From positions 195,765-259,764 of the forward strand of contig CAVSAI010000029.1 of assembly GCA_963725825.1 (NCBI GenBank): a stretch of 64,000 bases of DNA, written 5' to 3'. The DNA is from Candidatus Aminicenantes bacterium. GTDB lineage: Bacteria > Acidobacteriota > Aminicenantia > Aminicenantales > Saccharicenantaceae. The translations under genes and the position numbers were made by a program. The notes under the pieces are model-generated. The model worked only from the letters and a program-made list of their open reading frames with translations, made no database searches and was not told where the DNA came from. Below are positions 20,996 through 35,515 of the stretch, in pieces (position 1 is the stretch's first letter; each line of letters starts with the position of its first letter).

Positions 20996-21646
20996 TCAAA
21001 AAATCTGCTTGACGATGTCGACAAGGCCCAGGGCGTACTCGACCTCGGTCAGGGGGATCTTCTTGGCCGCGGCGAGCTTGGTGAAGCGCCCGTCCTTGTT
21101 GCTGTCCTTTGTCACGACGAGGTAATCCGCGAAGGGGGCCACGGCGTCGATCATCCGCTCGTTGTCGCTCCCGGCCGGGCCTCGCTTCGATTCGCCGCCG
21201 ATGTGGACGGCCATGATGAAGATCTTCTTCTGCCGGCAGAGCTCGATGACCTTCTTCAGCCGGGCCTCTTCGCTGTCGAGGGTCAGCCCCGATGCGCCCA
21301 TGCCCTTGAGGCTCGCGCCGATGGCGAAGACGACGGCCTTGTAGGGGGTGCCGGCCGGGTACTTGGCCTGGTCGGTCGTGCTCTCGACGTGGAAGCCCGG
21401 GCCGGACTCGCGCCCCCCCAGCCCCACGCCATCGGCCACCATCTCCGCGGTGGGCACGTCGCAGTAATCGTAGGGGATGCCCGCCTCGTCGAGGACGATG
21501 TTGAGCGTGGTGACGTCCGTGCTCTGCCCGGCCGAAGTGGTCAGGACGGGCAATCCGACTTTCGGGAGGGCCTGTTGACCGGCCATGAGGAAGGCCAGTC
21601 CGGCAACCGCGGAAACGGCGAGCCCCAGGAGGATTCTCTTGTTCAT
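20996..21646 (-). CDS. Membrane-anchored/periplasmic alpha-beta protein of unknown function (last gene of the peptidase operon)
   Basis: 216 aa with an N-terminal hydrophobic anchor. The start is 12 nt after the C69 stop. The alternating beta-alpha pattern suggests a Rossmann/flavodoxin-like fold. Confidence 0.5.
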   Translation of the reverse strand: MNKRILLGLAVSAVAGLAFLMAGQQALPKVGLPVLTTSAGQSTDVTTLNIVLDEAGIPYDYCDVPTAEMVADGVGLGGRESGPGFHVESTTDQAKYPAGTPYKAVVFAIGASLKGMGASGLTLDSEEARLKKVIELCRQKKIFIMAVHIGGESKRGPAGSDNERMIDAVAPFADYLVVTKDSNKDGRFTKLAAAKKIPLTEVEYALGLVDIVKQIF

Positions 21647-21658
21647 GACGCGTCTCCT

Positions 21659-23383
21659 TTACTTCTTGTCCGGCTCCATGAGGATGTCGAAGGCCCGGGC
21701 GGCCTTCTTCCACCAGTCGGGAGTGGCCGGCTGGCCGCGGGAAAAGCCGCGCTTCTCGGCGTTGTAAAGGTAGAGCCGGTTGTATTTGACGAGCAGGTCG
21801 TCGCCGAGCTTCCACCAGGCGTTGGTGACCGTGGTGGCGTTGTTGATGGCGAACCCGGTCAGGAAATCGGCCGCCTTGGCCGGCTTGGTCTTGTAGAGGG
21901 CGAGGGCCTGCTGGTCGATCTCGGAGATGCGATTGACCAGCTCGCGCTCATATTTCGACTGGGCCGCCTGGACGTCCTTGATGGCCTCGGAATAGGCGAC
22001 CTGGACGTGGAAATCCGTGTAATCGAAGGCCCAGCGGACCGAGTCGCGGGTGAAGGTCCAGTGGTCGCCGACCATGAACGACTTTGGGATCTCGGTCATG
22101 CCGGCGTAGAGCGGCATGTAGCACGAGGTGTCCTGCGAGCCGAAGGCGATCCAGGTGATGCCGCCGATGGTGTCGGGCAGTCCCGCCCGGCTCTGCGTCA
22201 CGGTGGAGTATTCGGCCAGGCCATGGTCGATGACGCGGGTTTGGCGGTAGTAGTTGGGGTTCTTGAAGGGACCGCCGCGGATGCCTTGGACAGGGTCGAA
22301 CGGGGTGCCGTAGCTGCGGTCCCGGGTCATGTCCATGACCTCCTGGACCGAGACCTTCTTGTCAGGCTTGACGGAGAAGGGGAAATCCATATTGGGCGTG
22401 TCGGCCTTGAACTTCTTCGACGGGGCGACAAGGTCGAAGAAGCGCCAGAGGCGCTGGATGCGGCCGTTCGTGCTCAGGGCGCTGCCCTCGACGGGGGAGT
22501 AGGCCCGCTTGAAGCTGAAGGGCTTGCCGCTCTTGGGGTCGTAGTAGCCCATCTCGACGGCGAGCGACACGACGTTCGGCGAGGCCATGAAGAAATCCTT
22601 GTTGGCGAGGTCGATCTCGCCGATCCGCGACTCGTTCGGGCAGACGCTGACCTCGTCGTCGGGGACGCGCTGGGCGGCCCAGACGGCGCCGGGCTTGCCG
22701 CTCTCGGGCGTCCACAGCGGGCCAACGGGCATGATCTCGAAGATCCAGGCCTCTTTCGCGTCCGCGACGGCCAGCATCTCGCCGTCGTCGTGGAAGCCGT
22801 AGCCGTATTTCTCGGCGAGGGAGCCCATGATCTGGATGGCCTCGCGGGCCGTGGCCGCCCGCTCGATGCCGAGCAGGGTGAGCATGCTCAGGTCGAGCTT
22901 GGCCGCCGGGGTCGGGTTCTGCATCTTGCGCTGGCAGCCGATCGTCGACTCGCCCAGCGAGACCTGCTTTTCGTTCATATAGCCGAACATGCCGTGATGA
23001 TAGGCATAGGTGTGGGCGACCTGGGGGATCTCGAGGCCGGCGAAATCCTTCTTATAGACGTCCCACTTTAGCCCTTCCGACGGAGGCCAGGTCTTGTACT
23101 GGGAGATATGGTAGATCTTCCGGGTCGAACCGGGCTTATAGTCGGCCGCCGGGACGTGCCGCCAAGTCCAGTCGCATGTGCCGCAGTCGCAGGTGTGCGT
23201 GGTCATGACCGAGCCGTCGGTCGACGCGTCCTTGCCGACGAGGATCGAGGTACAGCCTTCGCCGGCGATGACGGCATCGGACCCGGCGGGGGCGGACTGG
23301 CCGACGGCCGTCGCCACATGGCCGGCCAAGAGGACGGCCATGACAAGGGCCAGGCCGAAGGGGATGAGGCGTTTGAGATTCAT
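21659..23383 (-). CDS. Secreted C69-family (Ntn cysteine) dipeptidase, paralog 2
   Basis: A signal peptide is followed by GEGCTSILVGKDASTDGSVM, the Ntn Cys context of C69. It aligns by eye along its full length with the upstream paralog. Confidence 0.75.
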   Translation of the reverse strand: MNLKRLIPFGLALVMAVLLAGHVATAVGQSAPAGSDAVIAGEGCTSILVGKDASTDGSVMTTHTCDCGTCDWTWRHVPAADYKPGSTRKIYHISQYKTWPPSEGLKWDVYKKDFAGLEIPQVAHTYAYHHGMFGYMNEKQVSLGESTIGCQRKMQNPTPAAKLDLSMLTLLGIERAATAREAIQIMGSLAEKYGYGFHDDGEMLAVADAKEAWIFEIMPVGPLWTPESGKPGAVWAAQRVPDDEVSVCPNESRIGEIDLANKDFFMASPNVVSLAVEMGYYDPKSGKPFSFKRAYSPVEGSALSTNGRIQRLWRFFDLVAPSKKFKADTPNMDFPFSVKPDKKVSVQEVMDMTRDRSYGTPFDPVQGIRGGPFKNPNYYRQTRVIDHGLAEYSTVTQSRAGLPDTIGGITWIAFGSQDTSCYMPLYAGMTEIPKSFMVGDHWTFTRDSVRWAFDYTDFHVQVAYSEAIKDVQAAQSKYERELVNRISEIDQQALALYKTKPAKAADFLTGFAINNATTVTNAWWKLGDDLLVKYNRLYLYNAEKRGFSRGQPATPDWWKKAARAFDILMEPDKK

Positions 23384-23414
23384 GGGCAGCTCCTTCTTTA
23401 TAGGGGTCCGTTGA

Positions 23415-25136
23415 TCATTTCTCGGGTTCGCTCAGGACATCGAAGGCCCTGACGGCCTTGTTCCACCACTCCGGGTTGGCCGTGGGGATGCGGCCGCCGC
23501 GGCGCTTCTCGGCGTCGTAGAGGCCGAGGTGGTTGTATTTCACCCACAGGTCGTCGCCGAGCTTCCACCAGGCGTCGACGACGTTCTGGGCGTTATTGAG
23601 GCTGAAGCCGGTGATGTACTTGACCGCCTCCCCGGGGTTCTTCTTGTAGAGGTCGCCGGCGCGGGCGTCGACCTCGGCGATCCGCTCGAGGGCCCCGTCC
23701 TCCCACTTCTTCCTGGCGGCTTTGACGTCCTCGATGGCCGCGTTGTAGGCCACCTGCGTGTGGAAGTCGACGTAATCGAAGGCCCAGCGGGCCGAGCCTC
23801 GGTCGAGGACGAAATGGTCGCCGGCCCCGAACGACTTGGGGATGTCGGTCGCCCCGGCATAGAAGGGGACATAGCAAGACGTGTCCTGGGCGCCCAGGGC
23901 GACCCAGACGATGCCGCCGACCGGGTCGGGGAGCCACGAGCGGCACTGGGTCAGGGTCGTGTATTCGACGTTGGAGACGCTGATGAGCCGTGTCCCCCGG
24001 TAATAATTGGGGTTCTTGAAGGGGCCGCCGCGCAGGCCCCGGACCGGATCGAAGAGCGTGCCCTCCGACTTGTCCCGGGTCAGGGCCATGACGTCCCTGG
24101 CCGAGAGCTTGGCGTCCGGCTTGACCGAGAAGGGGAAGTCCATGTTGGGCGTCTCGGCCTTGAATTTTCTGGACGGGGCGACGAGGTCGAAAAAGCGCCA
24201 GGTGCGCGAGCGGCGGCCGCCCGTGCTATCGGCGCTCCCTTCGGTCGGGGAATAGGCCTTCTTCCAGCTGAAGGGCTTGCCGCTCCGCGGATCGTAGAGG
24301 CCCGCCTCGACGGCGAAGGACTCGGCATGGGCCGAGGACATGAAATAGTCCGGGTTGCCGAGGTCCATCTCGCCGATGACAGATTCGTTCGTGCACACGG
24401 CGACCTGGTCGTCCGGGACGCGCTGGGCCGCCCAGACCGCTCCCGGCTTGCCGCTCTTGGGCGTCCAGAGCGGCCCGACCGGCATGATCTCGAAGACCCA
24501 GATCTCCTTGGGGTCGGAGACGGCCAGCATCTCGCCGCCGTCGTGATAGCCATAGCCGTATTCCTCGGCCAGCGAACCCATGAGCTTGATGGCCTCACGG
24601 GCCGTCCGGCAGCGCTCCATGGCCAGGAGGGTCAGCTGGGTGATGTTCGTTGCCGGGGTCGGGGTCGGGTTGCTGAGCTTGCGCACGTTGCCGATGGTCG
24701 ATTCGGCGATGGCCAACTGCTGGTCGTTCATATAGCCGAAGACGGCGTGATGGTAGCCGTAGGTGTGGGGCGCCTCGGGGATCTCGACGCCGGTCGGGTC
24801 TTTGAGGACCATGGCCCACTTGCCCCCCTCGGCGGGGGGCCAGGTGCGGATCTGGTCGATATTGTAGAGACGCCGCTTTTCGGCCGGCTTGTGGTCGGCC
24901 GCGGGCACATGACGCCAGGTGAAGTCGCAGACGCCGCAGTCGGCCGCATGGGTGCTCATGACCGAGCCGTCGCTCGACGCCTCCCGGCCGACCATGATGA
25001 CGGTGCACGCCTCGGAGGCCGGAGCGAGCTCGGACGACGGGGCGGAAAGTCGGCTCGGACCGAGGCTCACGCCGCCGGCGAAGAGAAGGACGACGGCGAA
25101 GGCCATGGCCGCGATGATCGCGTTCTTCTTCAGCAT
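23415..25136 (-). CDS. Secreted C69-family (Ntn cysteine) dipeptidase, paralog 1
   Basis: A signal peptide is followed by SEACTVIMVGREASSDGSVM. By eye it is roughly two-thirds identical to paralog 2. Confidence 0.75.
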   Translation of the reverse strand: MLKKNAIIAAMAFAVVLLFAGGVSLGPSRLSAPSSELAPASEACTVIMVGREASSDGSVMSTHAADCGVCDFTWRHVPAADHKPAEKRRLYNIDQIRTWPPAEGGKWAMVLKDPTGVEIPEAPHTYGYHHAVFGYMNDQQLAIAESTIGNVRKLSNPTPTPATNITQLTLLAMERCRTAREAIKLMGSLAEEYGYGYHDGGEMLAVSDPKEIWVFEIMPVGPLWTPKSGKPGAVWAAQRVPDDQVAVCTNESVIGEMDLGNPDYFMSSAHAESFAVEAGLYDPRSGKPFSWKKAYSPTEGSADSTGGRRSRTWRFFDLVAPSRKFKAETPNMDFPFSVKPDAKLSARDVMALTRDKSEGTLFDPVRGLRGGPFKNPNYYRGTRLISVSNVEYTTLTQCRSWLPDPVGGIVWVALGAQDTSCYVPFYAGATDIPKSFGAGDHFVLDRGSARWAFDYVDFHTQVAYNAAIEDVKAARKKWEDGALERIAEVDARAGDLYKKNPGEAVKYITGFSLNNAQNVVDAWWKLGDDLWVKYNHLGLYDAEKRRGGRIPTANPEWWNKAVRAFDVLSEPEK

Positions 25137-25176
25137 TTCGACTACCTCCAGGGGCTCGACGCGGGGCCGGCCCCGC

Positions 25177-26340
25177 TCAATTCATGACCACCCCGCCCGC
25201 CGGCGCCTTGGACGGGTCGGCGAGATAACGCCCAACGCCGCTCTTGACGATCTCGGCGTATCGGGGGACGCCGCTGAGAGCGATGGGCCGGTCGGCGGCC
25301 TTTTTCGAGAACTGGCGGAAGATCTCCAGGGACACGGACACGTTCTGGCCGACCCTCTTTTCGAGGGGCCAGCCGCTCTCGTCGTAGGGAACGAAGAGCT
25401 TCTTTTTCTTCGACAGGCTGAGGAGAAAGGGGTCCTTGCCGTCGAGGAGGAGCTTGGTCGTCTTCGGTCCGGTCGGCTGGTCAAGGAAGGGGATGGGCGC
25501 CTCGATGAGAAAAGGCAGCGCCGGCCCGTGATCGCCGATCTCCCGGTGCGACAATCCGCGGAAGCCGGACGGCGACGGCTCGACATGGCTCTCGAAGCCC
25601 TCCTTGGCCTTGACGGTCAGGGAGGCCAAGGTGGCGATCTTGACGGAGCTTTCCGGAGCGACGATGCAGTTGGTCACCGGATACATCGTTTCGGCGCCGT
25701 GGATGTCGATGGCCACGTCGATCTTCTCGCGCCGCATGAGCTCCATGGCACCGAACGTCACTCTCTCCATGAGCGTTCCGCCGGCCCGCCCGGGCCAGGC
25801 ACGGTTGACGTTGCGGACATCCACGTAAGAGAGGAGCTGGCGGTCCGGGTAGTGGATGTAGACATCCGGGTCGGGCCACTGGTCGAGGGGCGAGGCGTCG
25901 CGGTTGCCGTAGCGGAAGCGGCGCTTGCCCCAGCCCGTATCGACGTCGAAGTAGAGAGGGTAGCCGTCGCCCGCCCTGGTGTTGCGGCTGCCGCTGTTGT
26001 TGAAGACGGGAATGACGTACAGGGTCCCTTTTTGGACGACGGCGTTCTCGATGAAGACGACCGCGGACAGCATGCCTTCGGGCTCGTTCGAATGCGAATC
26101 GCCCAGGAGCAGGGCCTTGCCGCCCGGCTCGCGGCCCTGGAGGACGTAGACGTTCGTATCGCCCCACGTGCCCTTGAGGCCGGGAGAGAATTCGCTCAGC
26201 CGGACGACGGCCGTGACGCCAGGGCCCTTGACGATGGGCATGTCATAGTGCCGATGACGGCGAAGGGGCAGGCCGCCCCAAAGGACGAGCCCGGCGAAGG
26301 CGACGGCCAGGGCCGTCTTGAGGAGTGCGTCTTTTTTCAA
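25177..26340 (-). CDS. AstE/AspA-like (M14-related) zinc deacylase/carboxypeptidase, membrane-anchored or secreted
   Basis: DSHSNEPEG (HxxE) and a later DIHGAE His match the succinylglutamate desuccinylase/aspartoacylase zinc-site pattern. N-terminal hydrophobic anchor present. Confidence 0.6.
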   Translation of the reverse strand: MKKDALLKTALAVAFAGLVLWGGLPLRRHRHYDMPIVKGPGVTAVVRLSEFSPGLKGTWGDTNVYVLQGREPGGKALLLGDSHSNEPEGMLSAVVFIENAVVQKGTLYVIPVFNNSGSRNTRAGDGYPLYFDVDTGWGKRRFRYGNRDASPLDQWPDPDVYIHYPDRQLLSYVDVRNVNRAWPGRAGGTLMERVTFGAMELMRREKIDVAIDIHGAETMYPVTNCIVAPESSVKIATLASLTVKAKEGFESHVEPSPSGFRGLSHREIGDHGPALPFLIEAPIPFLDQPTGPKTTKLLLDGKDPFLLSLSKKKKLFVPYDESGWPLEKRVGQNVSVSLEIFRQFSKKAADRPIALSGVPRYAEIVKSGVGRYLADPSKAPAGGVVMN

Positions 26341-26350
26341 GGGGCCTTGC

Positions 26351-26500
26351 TCACTTCCACCTGAGGAGCCTGAGGACGAGCGGGATCATGACCAGCAGAT
26401 ACAGGACGAGGTCGCCCCGGCGGCTTTTATCGCGCGCGAAATTCCAGCCGAGAAGCCCCAAAAGGAAGGCCGTGATGACGTAGTATGCGATCATGATCAT
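26351..26500 (-). CDS. Small two-helix membrane protein
   Basis: ATG at 26500 lies 8 nt after GAGGAG. The 49-aa product has two hydrophobic helices. It sits between the permease and the deacylase in the same operon. Confidence 0.35.
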   Translation of the reverse strand: MIMIAYYVITAFLLGLLGWNFARDKSRRGDLVLYLLVMIPLVLRLLRWK

Positions 26501-26520
26501 CGGCGCGTCTCCTCGGTACC

Positions 26521-27828
26521 CTACATGCTCCATCTGACCAGGAAAGCCAGCTTCGAGCTGAAGATGATCATGGCCATGGCCACCGCGGTGATGACCAGCC
26601 AGGGCAGCCAGGTGGCCTTGAGGAAATCCTTGTAGGAGCCTTCATAGCCGGAAACCATGTTGCTCAGCCGGCCGATCAGGGCCGTTGGAGGCAGTCCGTC
26701 GCCGAGCGGCCAGAGCAGGCTGAGCCCGGCGATGACGACCGTCGCATGGAAGCCGATCGAGTCCAGGAACCAGATCAGCGGTATGCCGATGATGGCCGCC
26801 CCGCCATAGGTCAGAATGCCTTCGGAGAAGGGGATGATGATCGGAAGAAGGAAGAACAGCAGCACGAGCGGGGTGGAGATGACGGCGAACGACAGCAGGC
26901 CGCGGACCCCGGTCGCCGTCATGATCTGCTGAAGCATGCCGACCGCGACCATGGTGGCCAGCAGGGGCAGGAGCCTTTTCGCCGTGTCCCTCGCCAGAGT
27001 GAGGAAGGCGATCCGCTTCGGGCTGAGCAGGAGCGCCACGGCGCCGGCCGCCGTAAAATCAAGGGACAGGCCGAAGATGGGGGTCGAGAAAGGCCAGACC
27101 CTGTAGGCGGCGACCATGCCGAAGAAGACGGCGAACGGGACGAGGACGCGCCACAAGGTCATGCCCGGCGTGGCGATCGGCAGGTCGGCGTCCTTGGACG
27201 CCTCCGCGAAGTCCTTTTTCCATCCCAGCGTGAGGACCGTGAACGTCCCCAGGATGAGGACCGGGATGCCCAGAGTGAACTCGAACCCGACGTAGGGGAT
27301 GGCCGTCCCGGCGCAGAGGATCATGGCCCAGATATTGACGGGCGGGGCCGCGGCGCTCAGGCCGGCGACGATGAAGAGGATGGCCGCCACCCTCTTCTTG
27401 GGCACGCCGAGCCGGCCGAGGGCCAGGGCCACCGGGGCCCCGACGACGAGGAGGGAGACGCTGCCCGCTCCGGTCAGCGCGCCCGGGATGAGGACGATGA
27501 TCATCAGGATGAGGAGGGCCAGGACGCGCTTTTTGCCGAACGCCCGGAGGGTCGCCCGGACGACATGATCGACTCCCCCGGATTCGTTGACGATGGTCAT
27601 GAACAGGGTCGCCGTGAAGAAGACGAGGATGACGTCGAGGTAGGTCATCGAGCCCTCGACGAGGTGACGCCCGAGTTCGCCGATCGCCGGAGTCTTGAGG
27701 AAGGCCCCGGCCAGCCCGCCGCCGGCGGCCGCGGCGAAGATGCCGATCTCGACCGGGAGCTTGGCCGCCTTGGCCGCGGCATACGCGGCCACCATGACCG
27801 CCAGTATCATCAGGATCTGTATCGTCAT
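26521..27828 (-). CDS. Ion-transporter-superfamily (DctM/GntP-like) secondary transporter permease
   Basis: 435 aa and highly hydrophobic (10 or more TM helices). The LIPGALTGAGSVSLLVVGAPVA...AAAPPVNIWAMI pattern resembles DctM-type large permeases. No DctP/TAXI binding protein is nearby. Confidence 0.55.
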   Translation of the reverse strand: MTIQILMILAVMVAAYAAAKAAKLPVEIGIFAAAAGGGLAGAFLKTPAIGELGRHLVEGSMTYLDVILVFFTATLFMTIVNESGGVDHVVRATLRAFGKKRVLALLILMIIVLIPGALTGAGSVSLLVVGAPVALALGRLGVPKKRVAAILFIVAGLSAAAPPVNIWAMILCAGTAIPYVGFEFTLGIPVLILGTFTVLTLGWKKDFAEASKDADLPIATPGMTLWRVLVPFAVFFGMVAAYRVWPFSTPIFGLSLDFTAAGAVALLLSPKRIAFLTLARDTAKRLLPLLATMVAVGMLQQIMTATGVRGLLSFAVISTPLVLLFFLLPIIIPFSEGILTYGGAAIIGIPLIWFLDSIGFHATVVIAGLSLLWPLGDGLPPTALIGRLSNMVSGYEGSYKDFLKATWLPWLVITAVAMAMIIFSSKLAFLVRWSM

Positions 27829-27952: not shown

Positions 27953-27981
27953 TAGACAAACGGGGGCATAGTTGCTAAGAT
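27953..27981 (+). promoter_or_regulatory. Sigma-70-type promoter (TAGACA-N17 incl. TGc-TAAGAT) upstream of the peptidase-propeller-Omp85 gene
   Basis: The -35 is at 27953..27958 and the extended -10 at 27973..27981. It would give a leader of about 120 nt. An alternative weaker TACAAT box lies at 28075..28080. Confidence 0.45.
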
Positions 27982-28109
27982 ATTTGGCGGAAAGGGGTCG
28001 AAAGGAGTTTCGACCTATGCGCGCACTTCCGCCTCCCGTCCGGGAGGGCATTTCCCATCCCACTCATCTTCCGCTACAATTGGTCCATGTCTTTCCAAGG
28101 AGGCCCTAC

Positions 28110-31100
28110 ATGCGGACTTCCGCGTTCGCGAAATTCGTCGCCGCTTTGAGCCTCGCCGGCCTGCTGGCCGGGGTGGGAGCCCCCGAGCTCCGGGCCCAAT
28201 GGTACGGCCGCAACAAGGTCCAGTACCAGAGGTTCGACTTCAAGATCATGAAGACCCGCCATTTCGACGTCTATTTCTATCTCCAGGACGAGACTACGGT
28301 CAAAATGGCCGGCATGATGGCCGAGCGCTGGTACTCGCGCCTGTCCCGGATGTTCAACCACGAGCTCAAGGGCCGACAGCCTCTCGTCCTTTACGGCAGC
28401 AGTCCGGAATTCCAGCAGACGACGGTCATCCCGGAGATCCTGGGCGAGGGGACCGGCGGCGTCACGGAGTCGTTCAAGCGCCGCATCGTCCTGCCCTACG
28501 GGGCGTCGCTCTCCGAGACCGACCACGTCATCGGGCACGAACTCGTCCACGCCTTCCAATACGACATCATGGCCCAGGGCCATTCCGACCAGTCCCGGGG
28601 CTACGACGCAACCCTGCGCATCCCTCTCTGGTTCATCGAAGGCATGGCCGAGTACCTGTCGATCGGCCCGGTCGACGCCAACACGTCGATGTGGATGCGG
28701 GACGCCGTGCGGCGCAAGGAGGTGCCGGATATCAGGAAGCTCGGAAACTCCTACAAGTACTTCCCTTACCGCTGGGGCCAGGCCGTCTGGGCCTACGTCA
28801 CCGGGCGCTGGGGCGACGAGGTCATCGGCAAGATGATGAAGTCCGTCGGCCGCACCGGGGACTACGAGGTCATCCTCGAGGCCGTCCTGGGCATCAAGAT
28901 GAAACAGCTCTCAGCCGACTGGAAAAAGTCCATGCAGGACGCCTACGCGCCCCTTCTCGACAAGACCCAGCTGGCCGAGAAGATCGCCAAGCCGCTCTTC
29001 AAGGGCACCCAGTCCAATCCCTATAACATCGCCCCCGCCATCAGCCCGGACGGGAAATCCCTCGTCTTCCTGTCGAGCCGCGACCTGTTCTCGATCGACC
29101 TCTTCCTGGCCAACGCCGAAACCGGCGAGATCAGCCGCAAGATCATCTCGACGGCGGTCGACCCCCACTTCGAGAGCATTCAGTTCATCAAGTCCGCGGG
29201 CTCTTACGACACCACGGGCGAGAAGTTCGTCTTCGGAGGCGTGGCCAAGGGCCGGCCGGTCCTGACCATCATGGACATGAGGAAGGTCAAGATCGAGCGG
29301 GAGATCCCGTTCGGCGAGCTGGCCGAGATCCTCAGCCCGGCCTTTTCCCCCGACGGCCGCTACGTCGCCTTCACGGGACTCGCCGGCGGCGTTTCGGACC
29401 TCTTCATCTACGACCTCAACGAGAATGTCCTCAAGCAGATGACGCGCGATCCGTACGGCGACCTTCAGCCGGTCTGGTCGCCCGACGGCAAGACCATCGC
29501 CTTCGTCACGGAGAGGTTCTCGACCAACCTCGAGTGGGTCGACGTCGGGCACTATGAGCTGGCCCTGCTCGACGTCGAATCGGGCCGGATCCAGAAGCTC
29601 CTGGCGTTCCCCAACGGCAAGAACATCAACCCGCAGTGGACCGCCGATTCATCGGCCCTTTATTTCCTCTCGGACCAGAGCGGCAAGACCGACCTCTACC
29701 GGATCGACATCGCCTCGGCCAAGATCTCGGAGGTCACGAACCTCTATGCCGGCATCGCCGGGATCACCGAGCTCAGCCCGTCGATCTCCGTCGCCCACGG
29801 CACGGGCCGGCTCATCTTCTCGGGCTATCACGACGGGTATTACACGATCTACTCGATCGACGACCCTCAGTTCCTGCGGGGGGAGTCTTTCCTGGCTCAG
29901 TTCGAGCGCAACCCGGCCCTCCTGCCTCCGCGGAAAGAGCCCGAGGGGGCCCTCTTGGGGCTCCTCAAGAACCCCCTGTTCGGACTTCCCAAGGACAGCA
30001 ACTTCCCGGTCGTCGCCTATAAGCCCAAGCTCGGCCTCGACTACGTCTCGCCCCCGAACGTCGCCGTCGGCGTCGACCGCTACGGCACCTACGGGGCGGG
30101 CGGTGTGGCCGCGTATTGGAGCGACATGCTGGGCTATCACACGATCGTCACGACCGCGTTCACGGGGTCCCGGCTGATCGATACCTCGGGCGTCGTGGGC
30201 TACCTCAACAACCGGGGCCGGTTCAATTGGGGCGCGGCGGCCCAGCGGATCGTCTATCCCTACCCGTACTATTACTTCTATCTCGATCAGAACGACGGCT
30301 TTTACCATGAGATCGAGGACGTCTATCGGCTCATCAACTATGACGTCTCGCTCTTCGGGTCTTATCCCTTCAGCCAGGTGAGCCGGTTCCAGCTGAGCGC
30401 CGGCTACCGGGTCCAGGATTTCAACCACACGATCTACGAGCGGATCTACGATCTCAGCGGGCTCCTGCTCGACTACCAGAAATTCCATCCGGCCGATACG
30501 CCTCCGGCCCTGTCCTTCGCCTATGCCACGGCCGGTTATTTTTACGACACGGGCATATTCGGCGCGACGAGCCCCATCCTGGGCCAGAACGTCGGCATCT
30601 CGGTATCGCCCGCCCTGGGCAAGGTCTCTTTTACGACATTCCTGGCGGATTTCCGTAAATACATCATGCCGGTCAAGCCCTTCACCCTGGCGTTCCGGGC
30701 CCTGCACATGGGCCGCTACGGAAGGGACTCCGAAGACAGCCGTTTCTACCCGCTCTACATCGCCTATTGGGACCTCGTCCGCGGCTACGAATCGATCACC
30801 AACGCGGAGCTGAACGAATACCAGAGCAATCCGTCGAAGACGTTCGATTTCAACCGGCTGTACGGCAGCAAGATGATCGTGGCCAACGCCGAGCTGCGCT
30901 TCCCGCTCCTGGGGCTGCTCGGGCTCGGCAAGGGTTTCTATGGCGCCTGGCCCCTCGAGTTCTGCGCCTTCTATGACTGGGGCCTGGCCTACGCTTCGGC
31001 CCCGAACTATTGGTGGGGCGGGTACGACGCGAACGGGAACCCCGATCCCAATCTGGTTAAGCCCTGGTTCGTCAGCGGCGGGCAGCGGAAGCCCGTGAGG

Positions 31101-31226
31101 AGCTATGGCATCGGCATCCGGACGAACATCTTCGGCTATCTCGTCGTCGGGCTCAACTACGTCTATCCCATCGACAGGCCGGTGCGCGGCTGGCACCTCC
31201 AGCTGAGCATCAGCCCGGGCTTCTAG
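28110..31226 (+). CDS. Fusion protein: MA-clan gluzincin peptidase domain + TolB-like PD40 beta-propeller repeats + C-terminal Omp85-type beta-barrel
   Basis: ATG follows AAGGAGG, with a signal peptide ending ELRAQ. HELVH at 28536..28550, with a Glu 30 residues later in WFIEGMAEY. PD40-like repeats (ISPDGKSLVFLS, FSPDGRYVAF, WSPDGKTIAFV, WTADSSALYFLSD). Omp85 hallmarks: VRGY at 30777..30788, AELRFPL, SYGIGIRT and a terminal ISPGF. Confidence 0.7.
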   Translation: MRTSAFAKFVAALSLAGLLAGVGAPELRAQWYGRNKVQYQRFDFKIMKTRHFDVYFYLQDETTVKMAGMMAERWYSRLSRMFNHELKGRQPLVLYGSSPEFQQTTVIPEILGEGTGGVTESFKRRIVLPYGASLSETDHVIGHELVHAFQYDIMAQGHSDQSRGYDATLRIPLWFIEGMAEYLSIGPVDANTSMWMRDAVRRKEVPDIRKLGNSYKYFPYRWGQAVWAYVTGRWGDEVIGKMMKSVGRTGDYEVILEAVLGIKMKQLSADWKKSMQDAYAPLLDKTQLAEKIAKPLFKGTQSNPYNIAPAISPDGKSLVFLSSRDLFSIDLFLANAETGEISRKIISTAVDPHFESIQFIKSAGSYDTTGEKFVFGGVAKGRPVLTIMDMRKVKIEREIPFGELAEILSPAFSPDGRYVAFTGLAGGVSDLFIYDLNENVLKQMTRDPYGDLQPVWSPDGKTIAFVTERFSTNLEWVDVGHYELALLDVESGRIQKLLAFPNGKNINPQWTADSSALYFLSDQSGKTDLYRIDIASAKISEVTNLYAGIAGITELSPSISVAHGTGRLIFSGYHDGYYTIYSIDDPQFLRGESFLAQFERNPALLPPRKEPEGALLGLLKNPLFGLPKDSNFPVVAYKPKLGLDYVSPPNVAVGVDRYGTYGAGGVAAYWSDMLGYHTIVTTAFTGSRLIDTSGVVGYLNNRGRFNWGAAAQRIVYPYPYYYFYLDQNDGFYHEIEDVYRLINYDVSLFGSYPFSQVSRFQLSAGYRVQDFNHTIYERIYDLSGLLLDYQKFHPADTPPALSFAYATAGYFYDTGIFGATSPILGQNVGISVSPALGKVSFTTFLADFRKYIMPVKPFTLAFRALHMGRYGRDSEDSRFYPLYIAYWDLVRGYESITNAELNEYQSNPSKTFDFNRLYGSKMIVANAELRFPLLGLLGLGKGFYGAWPLEFCAFYDWGLAYASAPNYWWGGYDANGNPDPNLVKPWFVSGGQRKPVRSYGIGIRTNIFGYLVVGLNYVYPIDRPVRGWHLQLSISPGF

Positions 31227-31373: not shown

Positions 31374-32723
31374 CTAAAGCTCCAATTCCGGCACGGTGGC
31401 GGCCTCGGCCTCATCCACCTTGAGGGCCGGAGGCCGGAAGGCCACGGCGAGCAGGATCGCGGCCCCGAGCGCCGTCAGGCAAGGGAGCAGGAACAGGGAC
31501 CGGAAGTTCGTGACCCCCGCCGCGGTGAAGACGGATTGGATCAGCCAGGGGCCCAGGGTGTTCGCGGCCAGCACGCCCAGGCCGAGGATCATCACATTGA
31601 AGAGTCCCTGCGCGCTCGAACGGCATTCCTTGGGGAAATAGGTGTCCACGAAGATATAGACCGTGGCGAAGAAGAACGCGTAGCAGATGCCGTGCAGGAC
31701 CTGGATGGCCACGATCATCCAAGGCTGGGAGGGGAAGAAGGCGTAGACCGCGAACCGGGCGGCGTGCCCCAGGATGCCGATGAGCATCGTGAACCGCCAA
31801 CCCAATTTTTTCAGCACCATTCCCAGGACGAGCATCGTCAGGATCTCGGAGACCTGGCCCAGGCTCATGACGGGCATGATCCAGTTGCCGGGAATGCCCA
31901 CGCCTCCGGCCGCGGGGCTGGCGCCGAGGAATGTTCCGGTCCAGTTGAAATACAGGTTATGGACGAAAGCATCGATGAACGCGATGAGCCATAAGATCAG
32001 GACGAAGGGGCGCTTGAGCAGCCTGACGGCTTCGAGCCAGGCAAAGCGCTCCGTGGAAGAAGCTCCCGGGACCTTTTTCTTCGGCGGGGTATGAGGGAGA
32101 AGCAGGCTGTAGGCGGCCAGACCGAGGGAGACCACCCCCGCCACGACAAAGGTCCAGCGCGTCGCCTGTTTCAAGGCCTGGCCTGTCAGCCCTGAGCCGA
32201 GGGCCGTACCGATCCAAGCGACGAGTCCGCGAGGGGCGGCGGCCTTGACCCGGGCCCAGTCCACGAGAATGAACGTGAACGGCCAGGCGGCGAGGATCCA
32301 GCCCAAGGTGCCGCCCATGCGGATGAACCCGAATTCCTTCTGCGAGTCCTTCATATGGGCGAAGGCGATCGAGTTGGCGATCGATATGGTAGGAACATAG
32401 AAAAGGCAATGCACTAACATCAAGACGAAAAACGGCCAGAAACCGCGGGCGAATCCCAACCCGAGGATCGCCAGGCCGCCTATGAGGTGACTGAAACCCA
32501 GGAACTTTTCAGCGGCGAAATGGCGATCCGCGAATTGGTTGCTGAAGAACATGCCGACGATGGCGGAGACGGGGAAGGCGTTCAGGATCCAAGCCTGCTG
32601 GATGGGCGTGAAACCGAGGCTGGGCAGATAGCCGAAGATCAGCGGAAGCCACGCCCCCCAGATGAAGAACTCCATGACCATCATGAGAAACAGCCTGTTG
32701 CGCGGGTTCCTGGTTCCTGTCAT
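31374..32723 (-). CDS. MFS transporter of the nucleoside:H+ symporter (NHS)-like family
   Basis: 12-TM profile. The N-terminal MEFFIWGAWLPL motif is characteristic of NupG/XapB-like MFS proteins. Confidence 0.65.
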   Translation of the reverse strand: MTGTRNPRNRLFLMMVMEFFIWGAWLPLIFGYLPSLGFTPIQQAWILNAFPVSAIVGMFFSNQFADRHFAAEKFLGFSHLIGGLAILGLGFARGFWPFFVLMLVHCLFYVPTISIANSIAFAHMKDSQKEFGFIRMGGTLGWILAAWPFTFILVDWARVKAAAPRGLVAWIGTALGSGLTGQALKQATRWTFVVAGVVSLGLAAYSLLLPHTPPKKKVPGASSTERFAWLEAVRLLKRPFVLILWLIAFIDAFVHNLYFNWTGTFLGASPAAGGVGIPGNWIMPVMSLGQVSEILTMLVLGMVLKKLGWRFTMLIGILGHAARFAVYAFFPSQPWMIVAIQVLHGICYAFFFATVYIFVDTYFPKECRSSAQGLFNVMILGLGVLAANTLGPWLIQSVFTAAGVTNFRSLFLLPCLTALGAAILLAVAFRPPALKVDEAEAATVPELEL

Positions 32724-32772
32724 GCTCGATCCTCCTTATCTCTTACGGCGCTTCGGGGAGTCGGACGGTCTC

Positions 32773-34242
32773 TCAGATCTCTTTGAGGTAGACGTTGCGA
32801 AAGAACGGCGGCGACTGGCTGTCGTGGTTCTGGAGGCCGATGTAGCCCTCGCGCGAGAGGTCGCGGACCTTTCCGCCCGGGCGGGCTTCCCAATCGAGGA
32901 CCGTATGGCCGTTGAGATCGACCTTGAGGTGCATCCCCTTGAACTCGATCCGGAAATGGTTCCACTCGCCGGTTGGGAGGGATGCCGCGATCTTGGGCGC
33001 CTCGATGTCGTAGGCCGCCCCGGTGTGGTGGATGCCCGTCGAGGTGTCGTCGATCTGGATCTCGATCGAGTGATAGATGTAGTCGTCGCTCACCGGGACC
33101 TCGGGGACGCGGAGGAAGATGCCCGAATTCGTCGTCGGCGTCGAGCAGCGGAAATCGCATTCGAGGACGAAATCCTTGACTTTCTTCCCGTACCAGAGCA
33201 GGCCCATGCCGCCCTGGCCCTTCAGGATGCCGGTCTTCGGGTCGCACTCGAAGTATCCGGGGCCGTAGTGGTTCCAGCCGTATTTCTCATACCCCCCGCC
33301 GCCGCGCCGCAGGATCTGGGTGTAGCCCTCATAATAGGTGACGCTCTTGACGTAGTCGATGCTCTTGCGGAACGCCGGCATGGGGTCGTCGACCTCGGAC
33401 TCGTTCTCGTACTCCATCGTCAGGTAGCCGTCGTAGTCCTGCAGGGTCAGCTCGGCCAGGAGGTCGCGGATGTGCCCCTTGCCGGAGCCCCAGGGGACGT
33501 CGTCGACGCCCTTGGCCGTGCCGTAGTCGCTCCGGTCCTTGAGGTGGACGTCGAGGATGCGGCCGGCGAGCAGCTTGAAGGCCTCGCGGGGGTCGATCAG
33601 GCCTCGCATCCAGTGGCCGCTGTCGGCGCAGGAACCGATGCGCGGGTCCTTGCCGTTGACGTGACTGAAAACGGTCTCGGGCAGGTTGTACTTGGAGGGC
33701 GCCGGGTGGTTGTGGATGGCGATCTTGATGTCGTATTCCTTGACCAGCTTTTCGAGCAGGGTGAAGTCGTCGTCGGCCGGCTCGCAGGCGAGGACGCGGA
33801 TTCCCATTTTGCGGGCGAAGTCGAAGACCTTGCGCATGCTCGGCTCGGTCCTGCCGAGGTCGACGACGCCGTAGCCGTAGAGCGTGACGCCGGACGCCTT
33901 GAGGGCCTCCTTGACGAAAGCGACCTGTTCGTTGGTCATCGTCTCGCCGAACTGGGCCCCGGGGAGCTCGGTCGCCAGGGCCTGGCCCGGAAAGGCCTCG
34001 ACCGCGCCGACGCCGAGCTCTTTGAGCTTCTTGAGCGTGTCGGCGAAGGTGAACTTGCGGAAGGTCCAGGCCTCCCCGGCGAAAGGAAAGTTCTTGATGC
34101 GGACGCCGGCGTAGTCCGTTCTGGCCACGGCGGCCTGCAGCTCGGGCGATAGATGCCGGATCTGAGGCGCCGCGCCGAAGGCGGGGCCCGCCGCCGGGGC
34201 CATCGAGGCGATCAGGACAAGGGCGGAGATGACGCGTTTCAT
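32773..34242 (-). CDS. Secreted xylose-isomerase-like TIM-barrel (sugar phosphate isomerase/epimerase family) fused to a DUF1080 (3-keto-disaccharide hydrolase-like) domain
   Basis: Signal peptide present. TIM-barrel motifs IAIHNHP and LDVHLKD...TMEYE. The C-terminal half has NSGIFLRV, IEIQIDD, GAAYDI, EWNHFRIEF and GYIGLQNHDS...FRNVYLKEI, typical of DUF1080. Confidence 0.7.
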   Translation of the reverse strand: MKRVISALVLIASMAPAAGPAFGAAPQIRHLSPELQAAVARTDYAGVRIKNFPFAGEAWTFRKFTFADTLKKLKELGVGAVEAFPGQALATELPGAQFGETMTNEQVAFVKEALKASGVTLYGYGVVDLGRTEPSMRKVFDFARKMGIRVLACEPADDDFTLLEKLVKEYDIKIAIHNHPAPSKYNLPETVFSHVNGKDPRIGSCADSGHWMRGLIDPREAFKLLAGRILDVHLKDRSDYGTAKGVDDVPWGSGKGHIRDLLAELTLQDYDGYLTMEYENESEVDDPMPAFRKSIDYVKSVTYYEGYTQILRRGGGGYEKYGWNHYGPGYFECDPKTGILKGQGGMGLLWYGKKVKDFVLECDFRCSTPTTNSGIFLRVPEVPVSDDYIYHSIEIQIDDTSTGIHHTGAAYDIEAPKIAASLPTGEWNHFRIEFKGMHLKVDLNGHTVLDWEARPGGKVRDLSREGYIGLQNHDSQSPPFFRNVYLKEI

Positions 34243-34258
34243 AGGTCCTCCTGGGGTC

Positions 34259-35515
34259 TCACTTGGCTAGGGGATTCCATCTTCCCTGGGCCACGGGAGG
34301 GATGTAACTCTCGAGGCCTTTGAAGGGGAAGGGCAGTGTCTTGCCGAGCTCCGCGCTCCGGTAGGCGGCCATGAGCAGCTCGGCCACGGCAACACCGTCG
34401 GCGAAGTTCTCTTCGGGCCGGACGCCTCTGAGGAATGACTGGACCATGTGGCGGTTCTCGGCGACGTAACCGTATTCGCCGGCCTCGTCGGGGACGACCG
34501 GCATGAGCCCGATCTCGGCATTCTGCTTCTCGACGAGGTCCTCGCCGGCTTTGCCGCGGACCTCGCGGCTGAAGAAGACCTTGAGGCCCGCGTCGAGCGT
34601 GTTGATCTGGAGCGAGTACTCGGGTCCCAGGAGCTCCATGCTCAGACGGAGTCCCGCGCCGACATAGCACCAGCTGGTCGTCGTCTCGACGACCAGGATC
34701 TTGCCGGCCTGGTCCTTGTACTCGATGAGAGACCGGGCGAAGTCTTCGGATGGCCGCTTCAGATAGTCCGTCATGCCGCCGCTCGTCTTGGCCAGGATCG
34801 CAGCGTACTTGGGCTCCTGCCATTTGAGGCAGTTGGTATAGGCTGTGACGCTAACGGGGGTCAGGACGCCGCGCCGCGCGCCGGGCGGAGTGAGCATGAA
34901 GCGGGCCTCTTCGACCGAATGGCACATCATGTCGTTGAGGACGCCGCCACCCTGCAGCGATCCTTCCCAGAACCAGGGCATATGCGGCCCGCTGTGCTCC
35001 TCGGCCGCCCGGGCGAGATAGGGCGGTCCGGACAGGGCCGCGCCGCGGGCCCAGACGATCTCCTTGCCGCGGACGACGGCCGGGGAGAAGACCTGGTTCT
35101 CGAGATAGCCGTCCAGGAGGCGGGCCTTTTCGGCGAGATCGAGCATCCTCCGGGCTTCACGGACGTTGCGGCCGAGGGGCTTCTCGCAAGAGACGCCGAC
35201 GAGCTCCGCTTTGCCGCTGACGACGGCGTGGCTGATCTCCTCCATGACCTCCCCCCTCGTGTAGTTCGGGGCGCAGATCCAGAGGGCGCCGATGCGCGGG
35301 TCGGCGGCCATTTCGGTGATCGAGGCATAGGGCTTGGCCTCGCCGACGCCGAGCGATTTGACTAGAGCGCAGGCTTCGCGGGCCCGCCTCGCGTCCGGAT
35401 CGAAGATGCCGAGAATGTCGGCGTCGCGGACGCCGACCCAGGACTTGATGTGGAAGCGGGCGATGAACCCGCCGCCGATGATGCCGACACCGAGCGTTTT
35501 TTGCTTTTTCGCCAT
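34259..35515 (-). CDS. Gfo/Idh/MocA-family NAD(P)-dependent sugar oxidoreductase
   Basis: GVGIIGGGFIARFH Rossmann motif and EKPL motif. RBS GGGAGG. No signal peptide. Confidence 0.8.
   Translation of the reverse strand: MAKKQKTLGVGIIGGGFIARFHIKSWVGVRDADILGIFDPDARRAREACALVKSLGVGEAKPYASITEMAADPRIGALWICAPNYTRGEVMEEISHAVVSGKAELVGVSCEKPLGRNVREARRMLDLAEKARLLDGYLENQVFSPAVVRGKEIVWARGAALSGPPYLARAAEEHSGPHMPWFWEGSLQGGGVLNDMMCHSVEEARFMLTPPGARRGVLTPVSVTAYTNCLKWQEPKYAAILAKTSGGMTDYLKRPSEDFARSLIEYKDQAGKILVVETTTSWCYVGAGLRLSMELLGPEYSLQINTLDAGLKVFFSREVRGKAGEDLVEKQNAEIGLMPVVPDEAGEYGYVAENRHMVQSFLRGVRPEENFADGVAVAELLMAAYRSAELGKTLPFPFKGLESYIPPVAQGRWNPLAK

Follow-up and report, generated by a model that had tools for sequence, protein, structure and literature searches.

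Introduction

How does a bacterium use a protein in which a peptidase, a propeller and an outer-membrane β-barrel are joined in one chain? This question is raised by a gene on the forward strand of a 64,000-nucleotide stretch of DNA from a Candidatus Aminicenantes bacterium (contig CAVSAI010000029.1, positions 195,765 to 259,764), which is referred to here as the window. An earlier note, made from the sequence alone, described the gene product as an Omp85 barrel that carries a gluzincin peptidase and TolB-like propellers in place of POTRA domains, and regarded this architecture as uncharacterised. The order of the modules is confirmed: Pfam and NCBIfam families, PDB matches, an AlphaFold2 model and Foldseek agree on a gluzincin domain, followed by a TolB-like propeller and an Omp85 barrel. 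The protein is an Aminicenantes member of the WD40-like subfamily of Omp85 proteins, to which it is assigned by its domain architecture and by the profiles tabulated for that subfamily. It is an ordinary member of a known family, with no new design. With regard to function, the favoured reading, for which belief and doubt are about evenly balanced, is that of an outer-membrane-anchored zinc peptidase in the periplasm whose active site would be gated by the propeller.

Family membership and conservation

Heinz and Lithgow (2014, Front Microbiol 5:370; PMC4104836) split the Omp85/TpsB superfamily into ten subfamilies. One of these, named WD40-Omp85 (WD40-like), has a propeller most like TolB and was likened to a fusion of BamA and BamB. 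Table S2 of that survey gives PF01103 plus PF07676 repeat profiles for the WD40-like cluster, and Table S3 lists WD40-like members with BamA/TamA barrel matches at 99.7-100% confidence together with TolB matches. Under the entry 'best aminopeptidase hit', Table S3 also gives 1z5h (F3 factor, the most frequent), 4kxd, 4fgm, 4ar1 (collagenase G) and 3qnf (ERAP1). The peptidase appears in the supplement alone, and the main text covers only the propeller. The claim that the architecture is new fails because this three-module design was already catalogued in 2014 (PMC4104836, Tables S2 and S3). The best fold match of the N-terminal domain in the present analysis, the F3 factor, is the same protein as 1z5h. 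The 'Metallo' subfamily of the survey carries PF00149 and is unrelated to the WD40-like Omp85 proteins.

A homologue search of 1.84 billion cluster representatives returned 1570 proteins at E≤1e-30. Conservation was determined with 117 full-length relatives among the best 150 of these 1570 proteins, taken as representatives of 50%-identity clusters. They are approximately 950-1125 residues long, and nearly all are collinear with the query over almost its whole length at 31-62% identity. A relative from the Cyclobacteriaceae is collinear and 34% identical. At E≤1e-5, 7994 homologs were found; the 120 best are mostly full length (64-91% identity), and most of the 7994 probably share only the PD40 repeats. 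Full-length members make up considerably more than a hundred clusters at 50% identity. When one genome per GTDB species was scanned, at least 568 loci with the architecture were located, and the carriers belong to Aminicenantes, other Acidobacteriota (Vicinamibacterales, Bryobacterales, Terriglobales), Gemmatimonadota, Eisenbacteria and Bacteroidota. Eighty species-representative loci were fetched from this set. Enough sequence was available at 72 of them, and each of these aligns collinearly with query residues ~28-1038, 65 in a single frame and 7 with frame changes.

Some homologs are split into two or three called genes by frame changes (L003 7199-10283, L004 7159-10217, L010, L016, L038-L040, L083 and L084), and several of the metagenome-assembled genomes with split homologs consist of very long contigs. 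These frame-split homologs give rise to spurious 'propeller+barrel only' and 'peptidase only' database proteins. A genuine form of 700-760 residues with propeller and barrel only was considered and rejected, as such entries come from frameshift-split genes; in L003, the upstream open reading frame (ORF) of 279 residues is 60% identical to the peptidase domain.

The source databases name the homologs inconsistently, as 'Tol biopolymer transport system component', 'peptidase S9', 'tolB protein precursor', 'BamA/TamA family outer membrane protein', PD40 protein or basic secretory protein-like. It is scarcely credible that one of these names is simply correct and that the protein is TolB, an S9 peptidase or a BamA/TamA assembly factor, since each name describes one module only. 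The TolB model TIGR02800 matches with E=6.8e-30 and 104 bits against an equivalog cutoff of 343; the N-terminal domain of TolB is missing, and the window locus has no tol-pal context, its neighbours being unrelated. An S9 catalytic domain is absent, and the S9 match is confined to the propeller. The BamA model TIGR03303 matches with E=6e-7 and 28 bits against an equivalog cutoff of 297, and POTRA domains are lacking.

Peptidase domain

The earlier note identified an HELVH site and a glutamate 30 residues downstream in WFIEGMAEY, and both are found at the positions it gave (Table 1). Conservation of HExxH among orthologs, on which the proposal depended, also held. H143, E144, H147, E177, E181 and Y220 are 98-99% conserved in the 117 divergent full-length relatives. 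Among 118 aligned sequences, H143, E144 and H147 are present in 117, 117 and 116, respectively, and E177 in 117. No other region of the protein is as conserved as the peptidase domain, whose mean column conservation is 0.65-0.68 versus 0.38-0.51 in the barrel. G117-x-T119-E120, located 26 residues before HExxH, is conserved as well, and its position presumably recalls the GxMEN motif of M1 enzymes. The WxxEG context of Glu177 is taken here to resemble the 'WLNEG' motif of the same enzymes.

Two Pfam scans of the query gave 31.5 and 30.9 bits for Peptidase_MA_2, under the gathering cutoff of 32.4. Weaker Pfam matches to M9, BSP and DUF6055 fall on residues 92-275, a region also matched by Peptidase_MA_2. 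Among the relatives of the N-terminal domain, 42 of 52 match Peptidase_MA_2 (E≤1e-3) and 43 match BSP. A flagellinolysin match in NCBIfam is far below its equivalog cutoff, and a profile of the N-terminal domain found no match among PDB sequences even at E≤10.

The fold was examined in the full-length AlphaFold2 model, which was run on a 147-sequence alignment and reached a predicted local distance difference test score (pLDDT) of 88.7 and a predicted template modelling score (pTM) of 0.84. Residues 45-292 form a mixed alpha/beta domain in which helix 134-155 bears HExxH and the following helix (173-185) bears Glu177. Residues 1-292 were also modelled separately, with a pLDDT of 83.6. When the domain model was searched with Foldseek, 49 of the 50 best PDB matches were gluzincin peptidases of M1, M61 or M9, and the exception was TFIID chain 7edx_B. 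Tricorn-interacting factor F3 (3q7j) was the best match (E=9e-4, query TM-score (TMq) 0.45-0.49), and other matches included M61 aminopeptidase, Vibrio M9 collagenase, IRAP, APN, ERAP and LTA4H. The scores are modest throughout, with E from 9e-4 to 3e-2 and TMq of 0.35-0.49. Judging from its motifs, the domain would be a catalytically active zinc peptidase, and this activity is part of the favoured reading.

An M1 aminopeptidase was tried as a closer identity and rejected, with no Pfam M1 match, an HExxH-to-Glu spacing of x29 instead of x18, and no flanking M1 domains in the model. One full-length relative (P0501, 1018 residues) has HEVAN in place of HExxH, so that the second His is replaced by Asn, while the Glu of EGMAEY is kept. 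It may be an inactive paralog.

Propeller domain

The earlier note spoke of several propellers over roughly 500 residues. The PD40/TolB-type motifs do occur where it placed them (residues 310-321, 411-420, 456-466 and 510-522), but they belong to one module of about 290 residues. DSSP assignment of the AlphaFold2 model gives a blade count of six. Pfam PD40 matches with E=4.6e-25. In the PDB sequence search, the propeller is the sole module with matches, with TolB at 8e-14. Foldseek with the whole model found TolB at 5e-11, the Tricorn protease 1k32 at 1.4e-8 and the propellers of S9 peptidases, and relatives carry precomputed Pfam matches to Tricorn_N and Tricorn_2nd.

Prolyl oligopeptidase, DPP-IV and Tricorn-type enzymes have a propeller that limits the access of substrates. 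By analogy with these enzymes, the propeller probably gates the peptidase in this protein.

Linker and β-barrel

No POTRA domain is recognisable in the sequence or in the model, although a vestigial POTRA-like element may persist. The Pfam scan found no PF07244 match in the protein at E≤1. Between the propeller and the barrel, the model has helices 586-589 and 614-620 and one short strand, after which a hairpin follows (642-656). The proposal that POTRA domains are replaced in this architecture is thus supported by both Pfam and the model. Five relatives of 1080-1125 residues (P0369, P0462, P0463, P0484 and P0505) have 70-130 extra residues between the propeller and the barrel, which corresponds roughly to one or two POTRA domains in length. 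These inserts gave no Pfam match at E≤0.1, POTRA included.

The expected 16-strand barrel was predicted. DSSP of the model gives 11 strands (659-870), a loop (871-920) and 5 strands (921-1036). All the Omp85 hallmarks listed in the earlier note occur in the sequence (VRGY, AELRFPL, SYGIGIRT and the C-terminal ...SPGF). Its placement of the barrel in the C-terminal region was right; the start of the barrel is near residue 642-659, far ahead of the motifs on which the note relied. PF01103 matches the C-terminal 438 residues alone with 25.5 bits, above the gathering cutoff of 24, and the whole protein with 22.8 bits on residues 739-1006, just below that cutoff. Forty-six of 54 relatives match PF01103 (best E=5.7e-14). 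Foldseek with the whole model found BamA (9mge_A) at E=2.6e-8 over 466 columns, at rank 42 behind propeller matches, and a barrel profile found no matches among PDB sequences.

The residues of the loop-6 lock are highly conserved among the 118 aligned sequences: R891 in 112, G892 in 115, E928 in 117, and R930 and D956 in all 118. E928 and D956 presumably correspond to E717 and D740 of E. coli BamA. Of the 117 full-length relatives, 113 end in W or F.

Proposed topology and function

In the model, long loops (962-995 and 1021-1028) alternate with short turns. Because loop 6 and the other long loops fall on alternate connections, strand 1 (~659-671) starts at the periplasmic face, and strand 1 also begins at this face in solved Omp85 proteins. 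The linker is without a long helix of the barrel-crossing type known from autotransporters or FhaC. The periplasmic start of strand 1 and the lack of a lumen-spanning linker helix suggest that the peptidase and the propeller are most likely periplasmic.

From these features, the following mechanism can be hypothesized. Sec would export the protein, and the C-terminal 16-strand Omp85 barrel would insert in the outer membrane, possibly by the β-barrel assembly machinery (BAM) pathway, as is suggested by the aromatic C-terminus. The peptidase and the propeller would hang from strand 1 on the periplasmic face through the short conserved linker, which takes the place of POTRA domains. The propeller would restrict access, such that only unfolded polypeptides or periplasmic oligopeptides could reach the active site. 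The physiological role would probably be the quality control or turnover of envelope proteins, or the trimming of imported peptides.

Several points weigh against this reading of the protein as a periplasmic peptidase. The periplasmic placement of the modules was deduced from the strand order of the model (DSSP), and the active site is only presumed to face the propeller channel. PlpD, an Omp85 barrel with an enzyme at its N-terminus (PMC4104836), shows that such an enzyme can reach the cell surface. Some taxa have several paralogs per genome, and Table S1 of PMC4104836 lists four accessions each of Rhodothermus type (D0M...) and Caldithrix type (H1X...); such copy numbers suit nutrient acquisition no less than a single housekeeping role. 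Genomic context points to no pathway either. Nine window neighbours were compared with the 80 loci by tblastn, 1594 flanking ORFs were clustered all against all, and no family-wide conserved neighbour was found, as none occurs in more than 12 of the 80 loci. In addition, full-text literature searches found no functional or experimental study of any member, only the 2014 survey and its citations.

The PlpD precedent and the multiple paralogs also favour a different location. The earlier note suggested a surface-tethered or self-exported protease, and in a type Vd-like scheme such a protein would digest external proteins and feed a divergent uptake cluster of permease and dipeptidases. Genes for a permease, an M14-like protein and two C69 dipeptidases do lie next to the gene in divergent orientation, both in this genome and in close relatives. 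However, the cluster is present at 10 of the 80 species-representative loci, all of them close Aminicenantes relatives, and the proposed link to a peptide uptake and hydrolysis operon thus amounts to local synteny. No positive evidence for a surface location was obtained; by strand parity, the barrel of the model begins on the periplasmic side, where the soluble modules would also lie, and no lumen-spanning helix is seen in the linker. POTRA, which PlpD retains, is missing, and conservation is higher in the soluble domain than in the barrel, a pattern that is uncommon for modules exposed at the surface. To our knowledge, a globular peptidase and closed propeller of 550 residues are unlike the known type V passengers. 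Surface export as in PlpD is unlikely for this protein. The more general proposal, that the 550-residue peptidase-propeller exports itself to the surface in a type V-like manner without POTRA for protein foraging in Acidobacteriota, Gemmatimonadota and Bacteroidota, is disfavoured and still more doubtful. If it were true, it would represent a new mode of self-secretion.

A narrower version of the periplasmic peptidase reading, with which it overlaps, is a single-chain device for the quality control or assembly of outer-membrane proteins (OMPs). Here the barrel seam would capture the β-signals of stalled or misfolded OMPs, the propeller would serve as a platform for docking in the manner of BamB or TolB, and the peptidase would degrade off-pathway substrates in the manner of BepA. 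Two reports (PMC8423444, PMC13478230) describe BepA as an HExxH zinc protease of family M48 that acts at BAM, and the 2014 comparison with a BamA-BamB fusion (PMC4104836) agrees with such a device. All Omp85 core motifs are 95-100% conserved in the barrel, and the high conservation of the peptidase across phyla suggests a conserved envelope substrate. In contrast, the protein lacks POTRA domains, through which BamA and TamA bind substrates and partners. The loop-6 lock serves the structure and is retained even by Omp85 proteins with no assembly role, so its conservation gives no proof of an assembly function. No linkage to bam, surA, skp or lpt was found at the 80 loci. In this specific form, the proposal is improbable.

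Gene structure and genomic neighbourhood

The earlier note reported an ORF with a good ribosome-binding site, which was verified, although its length is 1038 residues plus the stop and not the 1039 residues given. The N-terminus, MRTSAFAKFVAALSLAGLLAGVGAPELRA followed by Q, resembles a Sec signal peptide and has no lipobox Cys, as judged by eye. In the alignment of relatives, conservation across the family starts at A29/Q30, and residues 16-30 have a pLDDT below 50 in the full-length model. The mature N-terminus QWYGRNKVQY (residues 30-39; 28197-28226) is near-invariant across phyla, with Q30, Y32, G33, N35 and Y39 at 93-98%. The model confidence of residues 30-39 is ~80 in the full-length model versus ~62 in the isolated domain, and this difference suggests that the segment packs against another module.

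The G+C content of the gene is 62.7% versus 65.4% for the window, and no paralog of the gene was found within the 64 kb. Consensus matching found 3 promoter-like sites upstream of the gene, with 0.7 expected. The gene is probably monocistronic because the downstream gene is convergent. The coordinates of the gene, its modules and its neighbours are collected in Table 1.

Table 1. Positions in the window of the WD40-like Omp85 gene, its signals and modules, and the neighbouring genes
Feature	Position	Strand	Remarks
WD40-like Omp85 family ORF, complete	28110..31226	+	1038 codons + stop
Ribosome-binding site AAGGAGG	28097..28103	+	6 nt before ATG; read from sequence
Sec-type signal peptide, residues 1-29	28110..28196	+	By eye; cleavage after LRA
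Two sigma-70-like promoter matches	27953..28080	+	In the 280-bp divergent intergenic region; consensus matches
Gluzincin (clan MA) zinc-peptidase domain, residues ~30-292	28197..28985	+	Pfam, Foldseek
HELVH, predicted zinc-binding/catalytic motif (residues 143-147; H143, E144, H147)	28536..28550	+	
Glu177 in WFIEGMAEY, presumed third zinc ligand	28638..28640	+	30 residues after His147
Single six-bladed PD40/TolB-like β-propeller, residues 294-583	28989..29858	+	Pfam, NCBIfam, PDB, Foldseek, model
Conserved linker, residues 584-641	29859..30032	+	No recognisable POTRA
Omp85-type β-barrel, residues ~642-1038	30033..31223	+	16 strands from ~659; hairpin 642-656 ahead
Loop 6, residues 871-920	30720..30869	+	Between strands 11 and 12; VRGY (890-893) at 30777-30788
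Loop-6 lock partners: Glu928 (AELRFPL, strand 12) and FYDWG 954-958 (strand 13)	30891..30983	+	
C-terminal strand 16	31194..31223	+	Ends in Phe; β-signal-like
Divergent upstream cluster, six genes	21659-27828	-	DUF6305 at 20996-21646
Polytopic membrane protein, 435 aa	First in divergent cluster	-	No Pfam or NCBIfam family
Membrane ORF, ~50-60 aa	26351-26533	-	
Secreted protein, 387 aa		-	Weak AstE/AspA and M99 carboxypeptidase-like (M14-like) similarity
Two tandem C69 dipeptidases		-	
DUF6305 protein	20996-21646	-	End of divergent cluster
Downstream convergent genes: nucleoside/H+ symporter-type major facilitator superfamily (MFS) protein; fusion of xylose-isomerase-like TIM barrel and 3-keto-disaccharide hydrolase; GFO/IDH/MocA oxidoreductase	31374-35515	-	

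The divergent arrangement is kept in relatives down to ~66% identity. The first three divergent genes and the DUF6305 gene stay together where the C69 genes are absent (L002), and the cluster may be an undescribed uptake and hydrolysis module. The sugar-related set on the downstream side is syntenic in close relatives only and is unrelated to the Omp85 gene.

In Gemmatimonadota, a different neighbour is found. At 7 of the 80 loci, the gene lies approximately 200-450 bp downstream of an RlpA-like gene in the same direction, and this adjacency hints at a cell-envelope role in that clade. The RlpA-like assignment was made by eye from a DPBB and SPOR-like sequence in the C-terminal part. Gemmatimonadota loci with an RlpA-like gene upstream of the homolog were recorded as L039, L042, L059, L065, L073, L076, L082 and L084. 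The adjacency would suit a cell-wall or tether peptidase that trims the stem peptides of peptidoglycan or the tethers between outer membrane and peptidoglycan, while the propeller binds a Pal-like or peptidoglycan-associated partner. The close likeness of the propeller to TolB proteins, in both sequence and structure, is compatible with such a partner, but PD40 propellers are generic. The enzymes nearest to the peptidase in structure have linear peptides and proteins as substrates, the rlpA adjacency is restricted to one clade, and a tol-pal context is missing at the window locus. A cell-wall function is accordingly rather remote, and the periplasmic peptidase remains the favoured reading.

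Significance

Few Omp85 designs lack POTRA domains, and the family is among them. It is present in at least 568 species-representative genomes, and its architecture is kept strictly in several diderm phyla that have been little studied. A correct description of the three modules helps annotation, given the inconsistent database names. The location and the substrates of the peptidase would bear on the turnover of envelope proteins outside Proteobacteria, and on how far Omp85 barrels can be repurposed. As far as found in the literature searches, the family is functionally uncharacterised, which makes it a worthwhile experimental target.

Comparison with known systems

BamA and TamA share with this protein a 16-strand barrel, a loop 6 with VRGY/F, an acidic residue in strand 12, (F/G)xDxG in strand 13 and an aromatic C-terminus. 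In contrast, the protein described here has a peptidase and a propeller instead of POTRA domains, lies outside any bam or tam gene context and scores below the BamA equivalog cutoff. PlpD of type Vd (patatin-Omp85) likewise has an enzyme N-terminal to an Omp85 barrel in one polypeptide. PlpD is composed of a patatin lipase and one POTRA domain, and its surface export has been shown, whereas the present protein has a gluzincin and a propeller, with neither patatin nor POTRA.

BepA, an HExxH zinc protease at the periplasmic face of an Omp85 barrel, offers a functional analogy for the quality-control reading. It differs as a separate soluble M48 protein with a TPR domain and no propeller, and no homology is implied. 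A PD40-type propeller beside a peptidase is also known from Tricorn with its F3 factor (M1), and from prolyl oligopeptidase, DPP-IV and other S9 enzymes. Tricorn and the S9 enzymes are soluble serine peptidases, and F3 is a metallopeptidase but a separate protein, whereas here a minimal gluzincin is fused to a membrane barrel. TolB has the six-bladed PD40 propeller that is closest in sequence and structure. Unlike TolB, this protein lacks the TolB N-terminal domain and a tol-pal operon, and its propeller is fused to a peptidase and a barrel.

The WD40-like Omp85 subfamily has the same Omp85 barrel, the same TolB-like PD40 propeller instead of POTRA domains and the same aminopeptidase/collagenase-type N-terminal region. 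There is no architectural difference between the subfamily and this protein; Aminicenantes was not in the 2014 data set. The taxa of the subfamily overlap with those found here, for example in Bacteroidota and in the Cyclobacteriaceae, the family of the 2014 Echinicola entry.

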